Counted from the stretch's first letter, positions 2,867 to 44,040 are shown. The stretch is DNA of 64,000 nt from an uncultured Gammaproteobacteria bacterium (GCA_964599625.1 CAZRGC010000004.1:75705-139704); one strand, 5' to 3'. A program made the numbers and translations. The notes: generated from the letters alone by a model not told the origin.

Positions 2867-3238
2867 ATGAAGGGGTTCAAAGTAAATATTGAAAAAATAA
2901 CTTTGGGAAACAGTTTTTTTCGCAATGTTATTTTTACCGCGCCACACTCACAATTGGTGCTAATGTGCCTAAAGCCAAACCAAGAAATAGGTTTGGAAAC
3001 ACATAGCCAAAATGACCAGTTTTTCCGTTTTGAAGCGGGCCGTGGAAAAGTTGTTGTAGAAGATGAAGAATTTTTGGTTGAAGAAGGTGACTGTGTAATC
3101 GTACCCGCAGATACAAGACATAATGTCATTAATTTGGACAACGAATACGACCTCAAGTTCTACACGCTATATTCGCCGTCGCACCATCCGGACAAAACAG
3201 TTCACAGAACCAAAGAGGAAGCACTAGCCGCCGAATGA
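2867..3238 (+). CDS. cupin-domain protein
   Basis: G-x5-H-x-Q/H...E...G core (GLETHSQNDQFFRFEAGRGKVVVEDEEF...VIVPADTRHNVIN) typical of the cupin_2 small barrel. Confidence 0.6.
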   Translation: MKGFKVNIEKITLGNSFFRNVIFTAPHSQLVLMCLKPNQEIGLETHSQNDQFFRFEAGRGKVVVEDEEFLVEEGDCVIVPADTRHNVINLDNEYDLKFYTLYSPSHHPDKTVHRTKEEALAAE

Positions 3239-3531
3239 AGTGATTTTGTCGAAAATGACCCGAGTCATTTCGACAGTCCACTCCTTACGTGTTTCTGAGA
3301 CAGCTTCTTTGTTCACCGAAATTGTATTAGTGGATGTTTCGTACAAGTTAAAAAGTTCGTCGACTTTATTGAGTATCGAAGACTCGTTGAAATTTGCAAC
3401 AAGAGTTGCAGTCTCCGGGTCCGAAAGTGCGCTAGATAGAGTGTGTTGTGGTATGTCCAGCAAACACACTTCCACATACTCATTTGCCTCCAATTCTTTG
3501 GTCATTTACGGGATTATACACCTAAAAAAAG

Positions 3532-4065
3532 TTGTATAATGCCATAATGATCACTCTTCTTTTGCCAGGTTATTCTCCAGAAAACAAATCTTGGTTGGAA
3601 GACGCCGCCATAAACGTAGCCGGGGACGGAGAAACCAGGCCTATTTATTGGAATCACTGGACCGATATTCATAAAAAGTTTGATGCCAAAGACAAAGCCA
3701 TAGATACAACAGATGTGCTTTTGGATGACTTTGCAAACGTGGTTGCCAAGTCAGTTGGGGTACTTGTATTGTCATACATGATCACAGCAACTCCGGAGAA
3801 GATAAAAAAAGTTGTTTTGTGCGGAATTCCATTAAACGATTTAAGCGACCAAGACAAAGAGGTGATCAAGAAAGCTTTGTCGGGTTTTCCCAAGAATAAC
3901 TTAATGGTTATTCACAACGACAAAGATCCCCATGCGAGCCTGGAAGATGTCCTTAAGTTTGTTGCGGAAATAAGTCCGGAAATTTCGGTGGTAACCAAGG
4001 AGGCCGATAATCACGAATACAAATATTTTGAGGATATAAATAAGTTTTTCGAGGCAAAAAATTAG
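3532..4065 (+). CDS. hypothetical protein (possible small alpha/beta-hydrolase-like fold)
   Basis: 177-aa ORF. The N-terminal LLLPGYS resembles hydrolase strand-1 motifs but no catalytic triad was identified. Confidence 0.35.
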   Translation: MYNAIMITLLLPGYSPENKSWLEDAAINVAGDGETRPIYWNHWTDIHKKFDAKDKAIDTTDVLLDDFANVVAKSVGVLVLSYMITATPEKIKKVVLCGIPLNDLSDQDKEVIKKALSGFPKNNLMVIHNDKDPHASLEDVLKFVAEISPEISVVTKEADNHEYKYFEDINKFFEAKN

Positions 4066-34799: not shown

Positions 34800-36008
34800 A
34801 TGAACAACAGATTCAACTACAAAGCCAAGGACAAGCACGGAAAGTTGACCACCGGAGAGGTGGAGGCTGCAAACGTTTCCGAAGCGGCAAAACTTATTAG
34901 GAACAAGGGTTTTTATGTAATTTCTATATCTCCAAAGATGGACTCGCCTTTTGCGCTACTCAAGCGTGTGCGGGAAAGAATCACAACACAGGATGTTGCA
35001 ACTTTTACAAGACAGCTTTCGACAATGATTAACGCCGGACTTCCAATTACAGAAGCTCTTTTGGTTCTTAGGTCGCAGTCCAAAGGTCCGATGCAGGTGA
35101 TTGTCGCCCAAATTCTGGCCGATGTAGAAGCAGGAGAATCACTCTCGGCATCGATGGAAAAACACAACAAGATTTTTTCAAGAACTTATATAGCTCTTGT
35201 TAAGTCCGGTGAGGTCGGTGGAGTTATGGACACCGTGCTTTCGCGTTTGGCAGACACTTTGGAAAAACAACAGGAATTTAACGGCAAGGTAAAAGGTGCT
35301 CTTATTTATCCGGCAATTATCGTTATCGGTATGGTGATAGTTTCTTTTATCATGATGATTTTTGTTATCCCGCGCCTTACCTCGCTTTATTCAGAATTCA
35401 ATGCAGAGCTCCCCTTGCCCACTAAGGTCTTGATTGGCATATCCACATTTATGGTTAATTACTGGTTTATTATTCTGGGGCTTTTTGGGATGGGACTTTA
35501 TATATTTAGTCTTTACCGAAAGACCCCCGAAGGTAAACGACAGACTGATGAGTTGATGTTTAAAATTCCGGTGTTTGGCGACCTGCAACGACAGGTAATT
35601 ATGACGGAGCTGACAAGAACAATGTCTTTGATGGTTGGTTCCGGTGTGCCAATTTTGGAGGCGTTGAATATTACAGCCGAAGTTGTTGCCAATAGTTTGA
35701 TATCTGACGCTCTCAAAGACGCTGCATCACAAGTGGAAAAAGGGTTTCCGATTGCATTTTCTTTTTCGCGCCATCCAGAGGCGTTTCCATTCTTGTTGTC
35801 ACAGATGATTGCAGTTGGTGAGGAAACCGGAAAAATGGATGAGGTGCTGCAAAAAATAAGTCATATTTTCGAAGTTGAATCTGACGAAAAAGTAAAAGGA
35901 CTTACTGCTGCAATCGAACCTTTGGTCATGGTGCTTTTGGGACTTGGCGTTGGATTTTTGGTAATAGCCGTTATCTTGCCGATATATAATTTGACCAGTC
36001 AGTTCTAA
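34800..36008 (+). CDS. pilC: type IV pilus platform protein PilC/GspF
   Basis: Two T2SSF repeats (…ALIYPAIIV… / …AAIEPLVMVLLG…) and 3 TM helices. It starts 2 nt after the pilT stop. Confidence 0.88.
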   Translation: MNNRFNYKAKDKHGKLTTGEVEAANVSEAAKLIRNKGFYVISISPKMDSPFALLKRVRERITTQDVATFTRQLSTMINAGLPITEALLVLRSQSKGPMQVIVAQILADVEAGESLSASMEKHNKIFSRTYIALVKSGEVGGVMDTVLSRLADTLEKQQEFNGKVKGALIYPAIIVIGMVIVSFIMMIFVIPRLTSLYSEFNAELPLPTKVLIGISTFMVNYWFIILGLFGMGLYIFSLYRKTPEGKRQTDELMFKIPVFGDLQRQVIMTELTRTMSLMVGSGVPILEALNITAEVVANSLISDALKDAASQVEKGFPIAFSFSRHPEAFPFLLSQMIAVGEETGKMDEVLQKISHIFEVESDEKVKGLTAAIEPLVMVLLGLGVGFLVIAVILPIYNLTSQF

Positions 36009-36678: not shown

Positions 36679-37431
36679 GTGGAACTCTTTCATTTTTTTC
36701 TTTTTGTAATTGGTTTATCTTTTGGTTCATTCTTTGCCGCTTTTTCTTACAGGATCCCAAACGGAATTTCGATAATCAAAGGTCGAAGTTTTTGCCCAAG
36801 ATGCAAAAATCCTATTAAGTGGTTTGATAACATACCGCTAATTTCCTATTTATTTCTTGGTGGTGTTTGCAGGCACTGCAGAAAAAGAATATCTTCGAGA
36901 TATATTTTTATTGAGTTGGCAACAGGTTTAACCTTCTACCTTGTTTCCTTTGTGGCAGTGGATCCAGTTTTGCTTTTGTTTTTACTTTTTATCGCCTCGA
37001 TACTAATTTTGATATTTATTATTGATTTAGAGCATCAGATTATTCCCGACGGACTCGTCTTTGCGGCTTTTTTAGTGACTTTGGCAAAAGTTCTGGTATT
37101 TGACAATCGTTTCTTTTTTGAGGCGGTTTTTTCCGGATTTTTGGCTGCCCTTTTTTTGTTGTTGGTGCATTTGTTTACAAAAGGTCGTGGAATGGGTCTT
37201 GGTGATGTAAAGTTTGCTGTTTTTGGTGGAATGTTTATTGGGCTAAGACTTTTACCGATATGGTTATTTGTATCCTTTTTGAGCGGCGCTATTGTGGGAA
37301 TAATATTAATATTATTTAAGTTCTCCAAACTTAAGGACAAAATTGCATTCGGACCCTTTTTGATAGCCGGACTTGTTGCAACTTATTTTTGGGGGCATAC
37401 TATATATAGCTACTTGTTCCTTTTACGATGA
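36679..37431 (+). CDS. pilD: prepilin peptidase (A24 family) PilD
   Basis: N-terminal CPRC...CRHC zinc box, polytopic, and the conserved Asp contexts LGDVKFA / IIDLEHQIIPD. Confidence 0.85.
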   Translation: MELFHFFLFVIGLSFGSFFAAFSYRIPNGISIIKGRSFCPRCKNPIKWFDNIPLISYLFLGGVCRHCRKRISSRYIFIELATGLTFYLVSFVAVDPVLLLFLLFIASILILIFIIDLEHQIIPDGLVFAAFLVTLAKVLVFDNRFFFEAVFSGFLAALFLLLVHLFTKGRGMGLGDVKFAVFGGMFIGLRLLPIWLFVSFLSGAIVGIILILFKFSKLKDKIAFGPFLIAGLVATYFWGHTIYSYLFLLR

Positions 37432-38039
37432 GCAAAAGACACACAAAATTTAAAAAAACTTCCGGGGTTACTTTGATGGAGCTTATATTGGTAATACTTT
37501 TAGTTGCCATTTTGATAATGATTTTTATCACCTACTTCAGATCTCAAATATTCCGTGCAAATGATGCAAAAAGAAAGGGAGACTTGGACAGAATCAAGAT
37601 AGCAGTGGAAGAATACGAAAAAGACTACAACTGCTACCCTCCCCCAAGCATCATGGGATGCGATCCGGGCAACGGACTCTCACCATATTTGGAAAAGCTG
37701 CCTTGTGACCCGACAACAAAAGCTTCTTATTATTACGATTATGACCTTTCCAGCTCTTGCGCAAAGTGGTATAGGATTTTTACAAATGTGTCTGATTCGG
37801 ATAGTGCTGTAATGCAGGATTGTGGTCCGGGAAATGCATATAACTTTTACACCTCCTCTCCCAATGCCCCAAGCTGCCAACTTCAGGATATTGGTGGTTT
37901 CTACGGATGCAGAAGCGGTGTGTGTATGCCTATTCTTTGGGATGAGACACGCCCTGGTCCGGAATGCGATCCAAATTTCCAAAGTTCGACATGTTTTGGG
38001 CAATGCAATCTTCAGACCGAATGTAAACCATGGAAATAA
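37428..38039 (+). CDS. pilin-like protein
   Basis: KKTSG|VTLMELILVILLVAIL prepilin-type N-terminus with a Cys-rich C-terminal domain. Confidence 0.7.
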   Translation: MSKRHTKFKKTSGVTLMELILVILLVAILIMIFITYFRSQIFRANDAKRKGDLDRIKIAVEEYEKDYNCYPPPSIMGCDPGNGLSPYLEKLPCDPTTKASYYYDYDLSSSCAKWYRIFTNVSDSDSAVMQDCGPGNAYNFYTSSPNAPSCQLQDIGGFYGCRSGVCMPILWDETRPGPECDPNFQSSTCFGQCNLQTECKPWK

Positions 38040-38623
38040 ATTTACTTAAATTTTCCAAACAAGAAACATTGGCCTTGGTTATAATTTTTGCGATATTGGT
38101 TGGTGTTTCGTTACCTAACTTTGCAACCAGCCTAAGGCGCGGCAGAGATCAAAACAGAAAAGACGACATGGGGGCAATCCAAAAAGCACTGGCAAACTAT
38201 TTGGGGGATTTTGGAGAGCTTCCCAGGTCCACCGAAGATGGCCGTATAGTCGCTTGTAAAAAACCGGAAGACAAAGTTACATTGGACCAAAAAGGCAGGC
38301 TTGTTGTTAATTTGATTCCATGCGAATGGGGCAAGGATAAATTTTATGATTTAACACCCGGAAGCAGTAAGGTTTACATGGAAATATTACCAGGAGATCC
38401 TCACGCGGAAAAGGGTGTAAGATACCACTTCTTATCCGACACAAAGAGGTTCCAGTTGTTTTCTTCATTGGAATCCAAAGACGATGTAGAGTATGATAAA
38501 AATATAATTGCGCGCAATATAAATTGCGGATCGAGAATTTGTAATTTGGGCAGGCATTATGCTTGCGTACTTACAAAAACACTTGAGGAGTGTGAACAGG
38601 AAGCAATAAATTCTGCCAAATGA
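38030..38623 (+). CDS. pilin-like protein with degenerate prepilin N-terminus
   Basis: Hydrophobic N-terminal helix ETLALVIIFAILVGVSL, then a globular domain. It lacks the E+5. Confidence 0.5.
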   Translation: MEINLLKFSKQETLALVIIFAILVGVSLPNFATSLRRGRDQNRKDDMGAIQKALANYLGDFGELPRSTEDGRIVACKKPEDKVTLDQKGRLVVNLIPCEWGKDKFYDLTPGSSKVYMEILPGDPHAEKGVRYHFLSDTKRFQLFSSLESKDDVEYDKNIIARNINCGSRICNLGRHYACVLTKTLEECEQEAINSAK

Positions 38624-39189: not shown

Positions 39190-39663
39190 ATGAAAATAAA
39201 TAAAAAAATATTTGGCTTCACACTAATTGAGCTTCTCGTCGTTGTATCTATAATTGGTGTTTTGGCGACGCTTGTTGTTGCGAATATGAATACTGCCAGG
39301 GGGCGTGCCAGAGATGCTGCCAGAAAATCTGATCTTAAAAACCTGTCAACAGCTTTGCGTTTGTATTTTAACGATAAGGGAATTTATCCCGCCAATAATG
39401 CATCCGGGGAGATAATGGGCTGTGGAGGTCTTGGAACTACACTTTGCAATTGGGGTGATCCGTGGACAGTTGGAACTACTACCTACATGCCCGCTATCCC
39501 CAAAGATCCCATTACCAACCAGGTATATAAATACGAGCGAGGTGTTAATCAGGACACATTTACACTGTCTGCTTGTTTGGAAAACGAAAGCGATGCGTCC
39601 GGTGTGGCAACAAGTGATTCTAGTTGGTGTTCTACTCAGTGGCAGTTTCAGATACAAATATGA
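39190..39663 (+). CDS. type IV pilin
   Basis: IFG|FTLIELLVVVSIIGVL...ARGRARDAARKSDLKNLSTALRLYFND. Confidence 0.8.
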   Translation: MKINKKIFGFTLIELLVVVSIIGVLATLVVANMNTARGRARDAARKSDLKNLSTALRLYFNDKGIYPANNASGEIMGCGGLGTTLCNWGDPWTVGTTTYMPAIPKDPITNQVYKYERGVNQDTFTLSACLENESDASGVATSDSSWCSTQWQFQIQI

Positions 39664-40217
39664 AAAAGAACGGTTTTACATTAATTAATCCAACTTCTGA
39701 GAGCAAAACAAAAGGCTTCACTCTCATGAATCCAACTTCTGAGGGCAAAGCTAAAGGCTTTACCCTCATTGAACTATTGGTTGTTATTTCCATAATTGGT
39801 ATTTTGGCTGCGTTGGCAATGGTCTCATTTACGGCATCGCAGAGACAGGCAAGAGACACGGCAAGAAAATCTGACCTCAAACAATACCAAACTGCTTTGG
39901 AGTCTTTTGCGAATCAAAATAGCAGCCTATTCCCATCCCGTCCCGACGGTTCAGGTGCAACAGCATCTACAACATTGTGTGCCGATATAAGTATGACCAC
40001 TTGTCCCGAAGATGCCAAAAATGCCACAGACAATACATATGTATACAAATATCAATCCGACGGCGCGGCCTCAACTGGTGCAGCCACTGCCACTAGTTAT
40101 GTTTTGTGGGCAAAACTTGAAAACGTTACAGGATACTTCTTACTTTGTTCAAACGGAAAGTCTGGAACCATGCTTCAGGCAAGTCTTACTGTTTCTAGTG
40201 GAAACTGTCCTCTATGA
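39660..40217 (+). CDS. type IV pilin with tandem-duplicated leader (MKKNGFTLINPTSESKTKGFTLMNPTSEGKAKG|FTLIELL)
   Basis: ATGA start/stop overlap with the previous pilin. The leader contains two G-FTL cleavage-like sites before the real hydrophobic N-terminus. Confidence 0.75.
   Translation: MKKNGFTLINPTSESKTKGFTLMNPTSEGKAKGFTLIELLVVISIIGILAALAMVSFTASQRQARDTARKSDLKQYQTALESFANQNSSLFPSRPDGSGATASTTLCADISMTTCPEDAKNATDNTYVYKYQSDGAASTGAATATSYVLWAKLENVTGYFLLCSNGKSGTMLQASLTVSSGNCPL
39672..39755 (+). repeat. 42-bp tandem direct repeat (2 copies) encoding GFTL(I/M)NPTSE(S/G)K(T/A)K in the pilin leader
   Basis: Copy 1 is 39672-39713 and copy 2 is 39714-39755. A third copy lies at 40244-40285 in the next pilin gene. 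Confidence 0.8.
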
Positions 40218-40726
40218 TGATACTTTCTCAAAAAAAGAACTCTGGTTTTACTCTCGTGAATCCAAATTCTGAGGGCAAAGCTAAAGGCTTTACCCTCATT
40301 GAACTTTTGGTGGTTATTTCTATAATTGCAATTCTTGTTGGTTTATCCATATTTGGACTTCAAGGTGCTCGTGAATCTTCAAGAGACGCCAAAAGAAAAG
40401 CGGACCTAGAGCAAATCAGAAGCGGAATAGAAATTTACAGGGCTGATTGTAGCACTTATCCTGTGGGCTCTGGCGGTGTTTCGGGAGTTTTGGGGAGTGC
40501 ACTTACGGGTGACGACAGCAGCACTTCGTGCGCTTCAACAAACACCTATATTAATCAGGTACCTTCGGACCCAATTTCACCCAACAATTATTATGTTTAC
40601 GACTCCTCTGGTACAACTTATGAGATTTGCGCAGCTTTGGAACAGGGTAACCCAAGTACAGTTAACTGTGGCGGTATTTCTTCGTGCGGTGGGGCGTCTT
40701 GCAACTATAAAGTAGTTAATCCATGA
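40214..40726 (+). CDS. type IV pilin with extended leader (…SGFTLVNPNSEGKAKG|FTLIELL)
   Basis: ATGA overlap with the previous gene. Residues 9-26 repeat the leader unit of the neighbouring pilin. Confidence 0.75.
   Translation: MMILSQKKNSGFTLVNPNSEGKAKGFTLIELLVVISIIAILVGLSIFGLQGARESSRDAKRKADLEQIRSGIEIYRADCSTYPVGSGGVSGVLGSALTGDDSSTSCASTNTYINQVPSDPISPNNYYVYDSSGTTYEICAALEQGNPSTVNCGGISSCGGASCNYKVVNP
40244..40285 (+). repeat. third copy of the 42-bp pilin-leader repeat (1-2 mismatches vs 39714-39755)
   Basis: ggttttactctcgtgaatccaaattctgagggcaaagctaaa against ggcttcactctcatgaatccaacttctgagggcaaagctaaa. Confidence 0.8.
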
Positions 40727-41247
40727 TCAAACACAATGAACGGAAAAATTATGAAACCAAATCGTTTGGCTTCACACTTATTGAGTTGCTTGTGGGACTC
40801 ACCATAATTGGTTCTTTGTTTGGTTATGGATTTGTTAGTTATCGTGATTTTACAAGAAGGCAAACTTTGTCCAGTCTTGGAAAGCAGATTCAGGGAGACA
40901 TTCGTTTGGCGCAAGCAAACGCCATTAGCGGTTTTAAACCTACCGTAGGGGCTTGCGACAGTACATATGTGTTGGACAACTATAGTTTCAATGTATTATC
41001 CCCCACCGAGTACGAGGTATTTGCAACCTGTAGCAAAGTTGGATCGCAAAGTACGATACAAACAAAAGATGTTGAATTGCCTGCAGGAATAACAATCGCC
41101 CCGACCTCGGTTAACCCCATCACATTTAAGGTTCTTGGCCAAGGAAACAACATTCAGTCGGGCTCTAGTGCGACAATTGTTCTTACCCAAGCAGGAACCA
41201 ATGCAACTTACACAGTAACCATAACTTCGGGAGGAGAAGTAAAATGA
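40723..41247 (+). CDS. minor pilin / pseudopilin (GspH/FimT-like)
   Basis: SFG|FTLIELLVGLTIIGSLFGYGF prepilin N-terminus. Confidence 0.7.
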   Translation: MIKHNERKNYETKSFGFTLIELLVGLTIIGSLFGYGFVSYRDFTRRQTLSSLGKQIQGDIRLAQANAISGFKPTVGACDSTYVLDNYSFNVLSPTEYEVFATCSKVGSQSTIQTKDVELPAGITIAPTSVNPITFKVLGQGNNIQSGSSATIVLTQAGTNATYTVTITSGGEVK

Positions 41248-41684: not shown

Positions 41685-42181
41685 ACCAAAAATCACAACA
41701 AGGCGTATCTTTACTCGAGATACTTGTAGTTGTTACTATATTTGCAATTCTTGGTGTTGTTGTCAGCAGGTCGGTTCTTTTGACTCTCCAGGGGTCCAGA
41801 AAAACTGAGTCTATTGTTAAGGTAAGAGAAAATTTAAGTTATGCAATGAATATAATAGAAAGACAAGTGAGGAATGCTGATTCAATTCCGGCCTGCCCAC
41901 TTACTGATCCGAACACATTAACTTACACAGATACGTTTGGTCAGTCTACATCTTTTACTTGTGTAAATATAGGTCAGGAAACAGGAAACGTTGCATCCGG
42001 ATCTGCTAGGCTGACAAACGACAGTATCACTGTTACAGCCTGCAGCTTTGCATGTGAGCCGGGGACGGTAAACAACCCAGCCTCAATTGTTGTGGATATA
42101 ACAGCAGTTGACAGAAACGCACTTAGTTCGTCCACTTCCAGCGTGTCTTTGTCTAATAAGATCTATCTTAGAAACTATTAA
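41669..42181 (+). CDS. minor pilin-like protein
   Basis: QQG|VSLLEILVVVTIFAILGVVV prepilin-type N-terminus. Confidence 0.65.
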   Translation: METKMNQKSQQGVSLLEILVVVTIFAILGVVVSRSVLLTLQGSRKTESIVKVRENLSYAMNIIERQVRNADSIPACPLTDPNTLTYTDTFGQSTSFTCVNIGQETGNVASGSARLTNDSITVTACSFACEPGTVNNPASIVVDITAVDRNALSSSTSSVSLSNKIYLRNY

Positions 42182-44040
42182 ACAATTACGACCTTTTTAA
42201 TGGCAGGGTTTCTTAGAAACGACCGTTCAAGATTTCTAATCTTTCCTGATGGCAGGTTTTCCACAATTAGTGTGGCACGGAAGTGATCTTTGCCTGAATC
42301 TTCGTAAGGCTCGTTTATCATTGGTTTTATATTCCCCCCATATTTACCGACAACTTTACCTATAAATCCCAACAAGTCTTTGACATCATCACCCTCAAGT
42401 CTTATGGAATTCAGGTTGAGATCATCTTTGGATAAATGAAACTCATCCATGGCTTTGTCCAAGTCTTCCACGCCAAGTTGTCCTAACCCAATCATTCTAT
42501 AAAGATTGCTTACATACCTTTTGGCACCCAAATGTCTAAGCATTCTGGTTACTTTTTCTGAATGTTTGGGAAATCTAATCAAATCGTATATGTCAAACAG
42601 TCCCCTTTTGGCCAGTACTTCTCTAACCATAGACTTACCTTTACTGATTGTCTCTTGGTCTTCAAATTCTGCTCTTTGATCTTCTATGGCTTTACGGGCT
42701 GGTGGTAACACGTAATTTACCGCTTCTGCATCGGGAACGGCACGTGGCGGCCCTACAATCACATCTACAGTGGACGCGTTGGGAATAATTGTTGATATTG
42801 GAAATTCAACTCCGTCTATAAAAATACCTGTTGCTTGCGCGCCCATATGCTTTTCTATTGAATAAGCAAAATCTAGTCCCGTTGCCTCCGGCCTTAGGAA
42901 CTTAACCTCACCACTGGGTGTGAATATAAGTTTAAGTGTGTAGCTAGTTATGTCAGTTTGCCCGCTTCTTATTAAACTTAATACACCATGGTTATTGAGG
43001 TCTTCTCTTTTAGATGTGGTGATAGCAACTTCAAAAGAGCGTTTTCCGGAGGAAAATGGGTAATCTAAAGTAAGCTGTATTGCGCTATAACCGTTGTCCC
43101 TTGCTTTGTACAAAAAATTATCAAACCGCGACGAGTCTTCCATTTCACCGAAGTTGGCCCAGATTGCACCCAGGATCATTAACCCTTCATTTTCTGCTTT
43201 TTGCGTTGATTCTGAATCGTCTGTAATTATCCTGAAACTTACCACATCGTTGATTTTGGAAAATCTGTGTTCACGGATCATTTTGTGCCTTATTCTGGCG
43301 ATACCATTGGTTTGAATTTCAATTCTTGCGTCTATACCCAAAGACTTTACCAAATTATCAAGCTTGGAAGTTGTGTAGCCGATGAAAAGTTCACTTGTCC
43401 TGGGATCTTCCTTTAACATGTGGGAAAAGCGAGTGTATTCGTCAGGATTTGTGAATTTTAGCGACAAGTCTTCCAGTTCAATCATAACTTTCCACATACC
43501 CAAAGATTCTGCAAGTTTTGCGTAGCTTAAAGTTTCTTTGGCTTTGGCAACTCGTTTTTCGGGAGGCATGAAGTTTAATGTCCTCATATTGTGCAGCCTG
43601 TCAGCCAGCTTAAGAAGTGCAACCCAAGGATTAATAAGTGTTCTATCGAATATTTTTCTGACGGTTTCTTTGTCTGCCGACTTTCCGTTTGTAACTTTGT
43701 CAGATCTGAATTTGGATACACCCTCCACCAAAAAGGCAACTTCCTCTCCAAATTCTTTATTTATATATTCCAGCGTAAGGTCTGTATCTTCTACAGTATC
43801 ATGGAGAAGTGCTGCTGCAACTTTGTCGGGAGAGTTTTTGATGCCCCATTCTTCGTAGATTATTTTTGCAACCTCGGTGCAGTGGGTAAAGTATGGAGCC
43901 CCTTCTTTTCTGAATTGGCCTTCGTGGGCTTGTGATGCGACTCTCCATGCCTTGAGTACAAGTGGGGTGTTTTTGACATAATCCTCAAAAGTCGAGGCAC
44001 CCTCAACTCTGTCAATTGATCTTTGCCTTTCCCCCTTCAT
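42178..44040 (-). CDS. rel: bifunctional (p)ppGpp synthetase/hydrolase, RelA/SpoT homolog (HD + synthetase + TGS + ACT)
   Basis: HD motif HCTEVAKII...LLHDTVEDT, synthetase DVVSFRIITD...GYSAIQLTL, and TGS GEVKFLRPEATGLDFAYSI. Confidence 0.88.
   Translation of the reverse strand: MKGERQRSIDRVEGASTFEDYVKNTPLVLKAWRVASQAHEGQFRKEGAPYFTHCTEVAKIIYEEWGIKNSPDKVAAALLHDTVEDTDLTLEYINKEFGEEVAFLVEGVSKFRSDKVTNGKSADKETVRKIFDRTLINPWVALLKLADRLHNMRTLNFMPPEKRVAKAKETLSYAKLAESLGMWKVMIELEDLSLKFTNPDEYTRFSHMLKEDPRTSELFIGYTTSKLDNLVKSLGIDARIEIQTNGIARIRHKMIREHRFSKINDVVSFRIITDDSESTQKAENEGLMILGAIWANFGEMEDSSRFDNFLYKARDNGYSAIQLTLDYPFSSGKRSFEVAITTSKREDLNNHGVLSLIRSGQTDITSYTLKLIFTPSGEVKFLRPEATGLDFAYSIEKHMGAQATGIFIDGVEFPISTIIPNASTVDVIVGPPRAVPDAEAVNYVLPPARKAIEDQRAEFEDQETISKGKSMVREVLAKRGLFDIYDLIRFPKHSEKVTRMLRHLGAKRYVSNLYRMIGLGQLGVEDLDKAMDEFHLSKDDLNLNSIRLEGDDVKDLLGFIGKVVGKYGGNIKPMINEPYEDSGKDHFRATLIVENLPSGKIRNLERSFLRNPAIKKVVIV

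Follow-up and report, generated by a model that had tools for sequence, protein, structure and literature searches.

Direct and inverted copies of cleavage-site codons in the prepilin leaders of uncultured bacteria, a probable by-product of local template switching

Introduction

Described prepilin leaders carry a single cleavage site and are usually treated as simple, disposable peptides. The locus analysed here and its relatives differ, because two adjacent pilin genes encode leaders in which the G-FTL motif of the processing site is repeated one or two times ahead of the genuine site. This raises the question of how such leaders came about, whether the repeats are translated at all, and whether the additional motifs act at the level of the protein, act at the level of the nucleic acid or are simply tolerated. 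In the following, “the window” denotes the whole 64-kb stretch of DNA that was analysed.

Results

Two pilin genes in an operon with its own prepilin peptidase

Both genes lie on the plus strand in a pilus operon that comprises PilC (34800-36008), one pilin, PilD and nine more pilin-like genes up to position 42181, with most of the genes joined via ATGA stop/start overlaps. The relevant features are:

36679-37431, plus strand: PilD, the prepilin peptidase expected to cut off the leaders (A24_N_bact and Peptidase_A24 matches)
39660-40217, plus strand: type IV pilin gene of 185 aa with a 33-residue leader containing two 14-aa units (ORF, ATGA overlap, PF07963)
39660-39758, plus strand: leader codons M1-G33, with the predicted PilD cut between G33 (39756-39758) and F34 (G|FTLIELLVVISIIG motif, N_methyl match)
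40214-40726, plus strand: next pilin gene, 170 aa with a 25-residue leader containing one unit (ORF; also matches T2SSG)

According to Pfam, the cognate peptidase and assembly genes (PilD and PilC) are present at the locus itself and neighbouring pilins match T2SSG and GspH, while syntenic loci of relatives carry T2SSE ATPases upstream. The first-pass annotation had called the two genes pilins, and PF07963 (N_methyl) matches in both proteins bear this out. The product of the 39660 gene starts MKKNG-FTLINPTSESKTKG-FTLMNPTSEGKAKG|FTLIELLVV and that of the 40214 gene MMILSQKKNSG-FTLVNPNSEGKAKG|FTLIELLVV, and in each case the N_methyl model matches the last site only (residues 30-54, E 8e-10, and residues 22-44, E 3e-9, respectively). 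Both of these sites have Gly (-1), Phe (+1) and Glu (+5) followed by a hydrophobic stretch of about 20 residues (KG|FTLIELLVVISIIGILAAL and KG|FTLIELLVVISIIAILVGL). Judged by their sequences, the two genes encode ordinary type IV pilins and belong to a pilus operon of Woesebacteria-like type (Candidate Phyla Radiation), the assignment to Woesebacteria being taken from named orthologs, and cleavage would be expected only at the last, membrane-proximal site.

Near-consensus sigma-70 promoters can be read in the alpha1N codons (I-E-L-L-V-V-I-S-I-I) of four pilins, at 39227-39254, 39769-39796, 40299-40326 and 40781-40808 (TTGAAC or TTGAGC, 16 nt, TATAAT or CATAAT); these stretches may be a coding coincidence or internal promoters within each pilin gene. 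The pilin-like ORF at 38030-38623 is without a canonical G|F site (MEINLLKFSKQETLALVIIFAIL...); it occupies the same operon position in L001, L002, L085, L087 and L089, with no Pfam match on record in these relatives. A relA/spoT-like gene (42178-44040) is convergent with the operon.

The leader units combine direct and inverted copies

The units and the longer tract to which two of them belong are located as follows:

39672-39713, plus strand: unit 1 (GFTLINPTSESKTK; direct-repeat search, Tandem Repeats Finder, comparison with the related contig L001)
39714-39755, plus strand: unit 2 (GFTLMNPTSEGKAK; direct-repeat search, Tandem Repeats Finder, comparison with L001)
40244-40285, plus strand: unit 3 (GFTLVNPNSEGKAK; direct-repeat search, comparison with L001)
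39714-39810, plus strand: 97-nt tract of family D4 (unit plus alpha1N codons), 88% identical to 40244-40340
40244-40340, plus strand: partner of the 97-nt tract, family D4 (repeat search)

Sequence reading and the repeat search agree on 42-bp units that lie in frame inside the two leaders, as first annotated. The search returned three copies (39672-39727, 39714-39769 and 40244-40299; 80% identical to the reference copy), and Tandem Repeats Finder reported a period of 42 with 2.0 copies, 87% matches and a score of 131 for the 39660 gene. None of the shuffles of the window gave a match to the unit, and no other copy was found elsewhere in the 64-kb window. Units 2 and 3 are part of the 97-nt tract, which extends into the alpha1N codons and is likely a gene-conversion tract; the earlier suggestion of recombination between neighbouring pilins fits this shared 5' sequence.

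The units had been described as direct repeats, which is correct but incomplete, as an inverted copy of the G-F-T-L-I-E-L-L codons had been missed. The 3' two-thirds of each spacer, the segment between the upstream and the true site, repeats, in reverse complement, the cleavage-site and alpha1N codons located downstream of it, and G-F-T-L(-I) codons flank this inverted segment on both sides. Comparison of the spacers of the two window genes with the reverse complement of site and alpha1N yielded z values of 4.3 and 3.1, the higher one belonging to the 40214 gene, whose spacer matches nt 1-25 of site and alpha1N in reverse complement.

Unit copy number varies between close relatives

A search with the full-length protein returned an identical protein and more than 100 orthologs with 55-89% identity, several of which are named Candidatus Woesebacteria. 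The closest ortholog, P0002 (89% identical), is shorter by exactly one unit, and its contig, L001, is syntenic with the window (PilC 93% identical). Copy-number variation of the unit, which had been suspected from the window alone, exists among these genes: five consecutive pilins carry 0, 0, 2, 1 and 0 units in the window versus one each in L001, where two of the five units have decayed upstream sites (GLKL, GFRL). Ahead of the L001 inserts lie leaders whose orthologs in the window are plain, and the unit can therefore be regarded as an insertion after the original G-FTL. Unit 1 corresponds by position to the single unit of L001 gene 6001 (35/42 nt identical), and the best match of unit 2 is the unit in the neighbouring pilin (38/42 nt). 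Exchange of units between pilin paralogs is thus likely.

Two irregularities of the related contigs were noticed in passing. In L002 (7030-8273), two genes, one encoding 320 aa and the other a DUF4325 gene, break up the operon between pilins that carry a unit of the ISKACE type (see below). In L001, the PilD call (3149-3673) has only 174 aa and begins inside the A24 N-terminal region; it is 64% identical to the window's PilD of 250 aa and may reflect a miscalled start or a truncated methyltransferase domain.

Doubled sites recur in many pilin families

Site doubling with unrelated spacers (ISKACE, IRTLRRKNLIRVQH, ITIV) is seen in further orthologs, and an exhaustive profile-free search with the 57-residue N-terminus revealed additional types, including several in which two units are identical (P0167, P0213, P0146). 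A degenerate DNA pattern, “FTL[IM]-(5-15 codons)-GFTLIEL”, matched at least 120 loci of a metagenome collection, a census that is biased towards intact sites because the pattern needed an intact FTL[IM]. Together, the metagenomic pilins contain at least 20 unrelated spacer families built to a common plan, [short basic leader]-G-FTLI-[hydrophilic spacer]-G|FTLIELL, and two-unit forms are also present in other families (L121, L134, L146, P0167, P0213). No doubled site was found in about 165 pilin sites of other phyla that served as a background set, among the matches listed, and a scan of viral contigs gave no matches.

The units are translated from the operon-coupled starts

The ATG at 39660 overlaps the TGA of the preceding pilin (ATGA), and the ATG at 40214 forms the same overlap. 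Within the units, one further codon has to be considered:

39726-39728, plus strand: internal in-frame ATG and potential secondary start; the hairpin described below begins 6 nt downstream (sequence reading)

Exact-product look-ups in the contig index (starts 39660 and 39726, and the second pilin) returned no record, and annotation cannot settle the start for this reason. Among the metagenome matches listed, 42 of the 45 upstream sites that are complete (with the Gly codon) share the reading frame of the true site, which indicates that they are translated; the associated p=4e-17 ignores kinship and overstates the evidence because family members are not independent, although by family roughly 20/23 are still in frame. 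For the in-frame cases among the matches listed, the spacer is open in 47/48 and an upstream ATG is available in 42/48, and the spacers of L085 and L087 differ by an in-frame indel.

Were the repeats untranslated, the true starts would be ATG 39726 and GTG 40256, giving 11-residue leaders (MNPTSEGKAKG|F). An ATG does follow the upstream FTL in 5/5 L001 units and in window unit 2, a GTG takes its place in the 40214 gene, AAAGG is located about 10 nt upstream, and three of the 45 complete sites listed are out of frame or in 5' UTRs. However, the in-frame majority described above, the operon-wide ATGA coupling that puts the starts at 39660 and 40214, and the orthology of the upstream leaders to ordinary unexpanded ones all speak against internal starts, which would moreover be occluded by the hairpin. 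Most families encode Ile (ATH) at this position and have no start codon there; a relic start codon behind the upstream FTL was rejected as a general rule as well, since it applies to this family (ATG, GTG, ATT) but not more widely. We consider internal initiation as the true start very improbable. The earlier reading of the repeats as in-frame parts of leaders translated from ATGA-coupled starts is in agreement with the overlaps and the census, and the relatives did not show non-repetitive sequence with an internal Met as the true start, the pattern under which the repeats would have been untranslated.

Complete out-of-frame copies of the G-F-T-L-I codons occur in the 5' UTR of L181, L204 and L209, adjoining pilin start codons. 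As GGTTTTACA has a -35-like TTTACA, some of these copies may be promoter elements rather than relic sites.

A conserved hairpin covers the cleavage-site codons

The inverted copies give rise to predicted hairpins over the codons of the true cleavage site:

39732-39780, plus strand: imperfect hairpin (core 39740-39768) in which spacer codons P-T-S-E-G-K-A pair with the G-F-T-L-I-E-L-L codons
40262-40310, plus strand: corresponding hairpin of the second pilin, again over the codons of the true site (RNAfold, spacer alignment)
40750-40776 (40752-40774), plus strand: smaller, 12-pair hairpin spanning leader and cleavage codons of a pilin that lacks an upstream site (the third, 40723)

RNAfold predicts -18.8 kcal/mol for the first hairpin (z -3.1; 0/200 shuffles fold as well) and -19.6 kcal/mol for the second (z -2.6; wider region z -3.6). 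In the stem UGAGGG.CAAAGCU-AAA-GGCUUU.CCCUCA, the S-E-G-K-A codons are paired with the G-F-T-L codons, and pairing continues with small loops to CCAA with UUGG (P-T with L-V). Folding of the 45 nt around the true site gave a mean of -12.0 kcal/mol (z -2.1) for 52 genes with an upstream site versus -6.5 kcal/mol (z -0.3) for 150 pilin genes without one (all fetched loci; Mann-Whitney p~1e-12). The few strong hairpins among the controls are mostly in genes with degenerate upstream sites; the L001 ortholog of pilin 40723 has a decayed upstream site (GFRL). On the minus strand, a T-rich tail follows the hairpin of pilin 40723, and the structure was classed as terminator-like.

The duplex of spacer and true site is stronger than that of upstream site and spacer (p=2.5e-5), and synonymous drift in the upstream direct copy has left the complementarity of hairpin and true site intact. 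An attenuator-like switch, in which the spacer would pair alternatively with the upstream and the true site, was rejected on these grounds, as a conserved alternative pairing is ruled out by the better match of the spacer to the true site.

In the alignment of the window's own family (A2), 91% of cells are paired compared to 33-57% with slid partners, including G-C/A-U/C-G exchanges, and in two other families 97% of cells are paired (slid controls overall 33-69%). In these two families, the Leu codon (CTC, CTT or TTG) changes in step with residue -2 (E, K or Q). A second hairpin, which is independent of the cleavage site and has three compensated pairs, is present in a third alignment. For each of A2, A3 and A4, double changes and covariation exceeded every slid control and each of 500 shuffles, in sequence sets that are small and related and from which the structure itself was derived. 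G-U pairs outnumber A-C mismatches in the stems. The hairpin has no Rfam match at E<=1, and no intrinsic terminator is predicted on the sense strand at the hairpins.

The “ELERSKSVRRNE” leader family (L095-L205, e.g. L114:104-157) has two hairpins, of which the first is a perfect AATGAGGGT-TTT-ACCCTCATT palindrome encoding N-E-G-F-T-L-I, and the second a stem further upstream, ACGCTC-NAA-GAGCGT, which shows compensatory changes and lacks complementarity to the cleavage site. Such a site-independent hairpin was found only in pilin leaders (210 loci).

The hairpin might itself be the selected feature, a stem-loop of the sense-strand RNA (or of single-stranded DNA) that tunes pilin expression through, for example, mRNA stability, translation pacing or masking of an internal start, with the duplicated G-FTL as a by-product. 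This would account for a stability beyond that of shuffles and specific to pilins with an upstream site, for a spacer that follows the synonymous codons of the true site and not those of the upstream copy, and for the pairing, covariation and G-U excess just described; in addition, the window stem starts 6 nt after an internal ATG or GTG. Set against these points are the lack of an Rfam family, of a terminator-like tail on the sense strand and of a conserved pairing between upstream site and spacer, a register and loop that vary between families, and the small, related sequence sets. Furthermore, template switching alone can yield compensatory patterns, and PMC8794818 reports that it creates and maintains stems. 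The two explanations overlap in part, and we regard a selected hairpin as possible though on balance unlikely.

The upstream sites decay in relatives

The upstream G-FTL sites could alternatively work at the protein level if PilD bound or cut them, so that prepilins were processed in steps, the peptidase was titrated or N-methylated 14-residue peptides were released. Consistent with this, the G-F-T-L residues are kept through many synonymous differences, the upstream copy matches the gene's own motif (GYTL/GYTL in L002, GFTM/GFTM in L087), and Gly or Ala precedes most in-frame upstream sites. Synonymous-only differences are, however, also expected of a copy from a constrained site. In relatives, upstream sites decay while the leader stays (GLKL, GFRL, SFTLI, PFTLI, GFALI, GSALI), which argues against an essential decoy role. 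They also carry Asn instead of Glu at position +5 and lie in a hydrophilic stretch, 14 and 28 residues from the transmembrane helix, while the active site of prepilin peptidase is at the membrane face (PMC10191384). A protein-level function seems improbable to us, and the upstream sites would then be neutral.

Proposed origin and fate of the units

We favour, with some reserve, the explanation that the leaders were lengthened by duplication-inversion inserts that arose via template switching, were tolerated and spread among paralogs. Each 14-codon unit joins a direct copy of the G-F-T-L(-I) codons to an inverted copy of the G-F-T-L-I-E-L-L codons, and such a direct-inverted-direct arrangement could be the product of one replication template switch, in which the polymerase exits after FTLI, copies the opposite strand backwards and rejoins ahead of the Gly codon. 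Hydrophobic codons read in reverse complement specify hydrophilic residues, and PilD would remove everything ahead of the last Gly, so that in-frame, stop-free inserts are expected to leave the mature pilin unchanged and to be tolerated. Being nearly harmless in the leader and harmful almost anywhere else, inserts would accumulate in leaders. There, units could subsequently be copied, multiplied or lost among pilin paralogs by unequal recombination or gene conversion between near-identical 5' ends.

In favour of a template-switch origin, the inserted segment is the reverse complement of adjacent sequence and is flanked by a direct duplication. Conversely, only 16/56 spacers reach z>2 as inverted copies across families under strict alignment scoring.

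Another source of inserts could be small mobile palindromic elements (REP- or RPE-like) that integrated in frame and duplicated G-FTLI as their target site. The flanking direct repeats of the gene's own motif, the palindromic content and the presence of the same unit in several genes of one genome would be in line with such elements. Yet the unit has no other copy in the window, the hairpin of another family is confined to pilin leaders, one hairpin arm is the host gene's coding sequence and the units measure only 30-54 nt. With no copies found outside pilin leaders in the window (unit) or across 210 loci (hairpin of the other family), a REP/RPE-like element was rejected as extremely unlikely.

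The main observation that the neutral account does not fully absorb is the maintenance of the stem via compensatory change. Compensatory changes are found in three alignments, one of them of a site-independent hairpin, and look more like the mark of selection on a nucleic-acid structure than like a decaying relic. The whole module of upstream G-FTLI, inverted copy and true G-FTLIELL may be a selected device of many Candidate Phyla Radiation pilin genes, a proposal that we rate as rather doubtful, as we do the corollary that the hairpin, possibly together with a pseudo-site recognised by PilD, sets the rate of expression or processing of single pilins of one operon. If true, this would constitute a previously unknown layer of pilus subunit control.

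Discussion

The pattern described here recurs in these tiny uncultured bacteria and is apparently undescribed; it probably represents a by-product of mutation that is tolerated. Type IVb pilins combine a long leader with a non-Phe +1 residue and T4b machinery. The present leaders fit in length (33 and 25 aa; PMC10191384), but the +1 residue is Phe and the neighbouring pilins match T2SSG and GspH. A length of 25-33 residues is likewise within the range reported for long-leader pilins (type IVb; Streptococcus sanguinis PilE1/PilE2; PMC10191384). The length of those leaders does not result from a reiterated cleavage motif, however, and both the machinery and the F(+1)/E(+5) motif of the pilins studied here are of the T4a/T2SS-G kind. 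Class III signal peptides (PF07963 / IPR012902) have been described with a single site (PMC10191384). The present leaders resemble them in the hydrophilic leader ending in Gly, the F-T-L-I-E motif, the approximately 20 hydrophobic residues and the dedicated A24 prepilin peptidase encoded in the operon, but contain one or two extra G-FTL motifs with 10 hydrophilic residues between.

At a larger scale, short-range template-switch mutations have a counterpart in tandem inversion duplications. The units share with short-range (quasipalindrome-associated) template-switch mutations the direct-inverted-direct local sequence, the new hairpin and the compensatory-looking changes, as set out in PMC8794818 and PMC8604942. 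In contrast to these mutations, they recur at one functional site of one gene family, have been kept in frame within a signal peptide that is cut off, and have subsequently passed between paralogs. The palindromic elements of Rickettsia are dispersed mobile repeats of 100-150 bp that lie in frame in protein genes. Here, too, palindromic DNA is tolerated in coding sequence and adds a peptide segment, but the units have 30-54 nt, consist of the host gene's own codons and are confined to pilin leaders. Recombination-based pilin variation is known from Neisseria pilE/pilS and the R64 shufflon, in which conserved 5' pilin sequence is the substrate. Such sequence appears to serve as the substrate between copies in the present operon as well, although it is the discarded leader and not the exposed part of the pilin that varies, and silent cassettes or an invertase were not identified here.

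In a large uncultured radiation, the prepilin leader appears to be a hotspot at which duplication-inversion inserts recur, stay in frame and move between paralogs, and the outcome is a set of nested cleavage motifs together with a conserved hairpin exactly over the processing-site codons. The inserts matter for annotation because they affect the prediction of start codons and cleavage sites of pilins. If they are neutral, they would provide a clean natural record of short-range template switching that is sheltered by a cleaved signal peptide. If they are functional, they would offer a testable handle on what prepilin peptidase needs beyond Gly(-1) and on how pilin stoichiometry is set.
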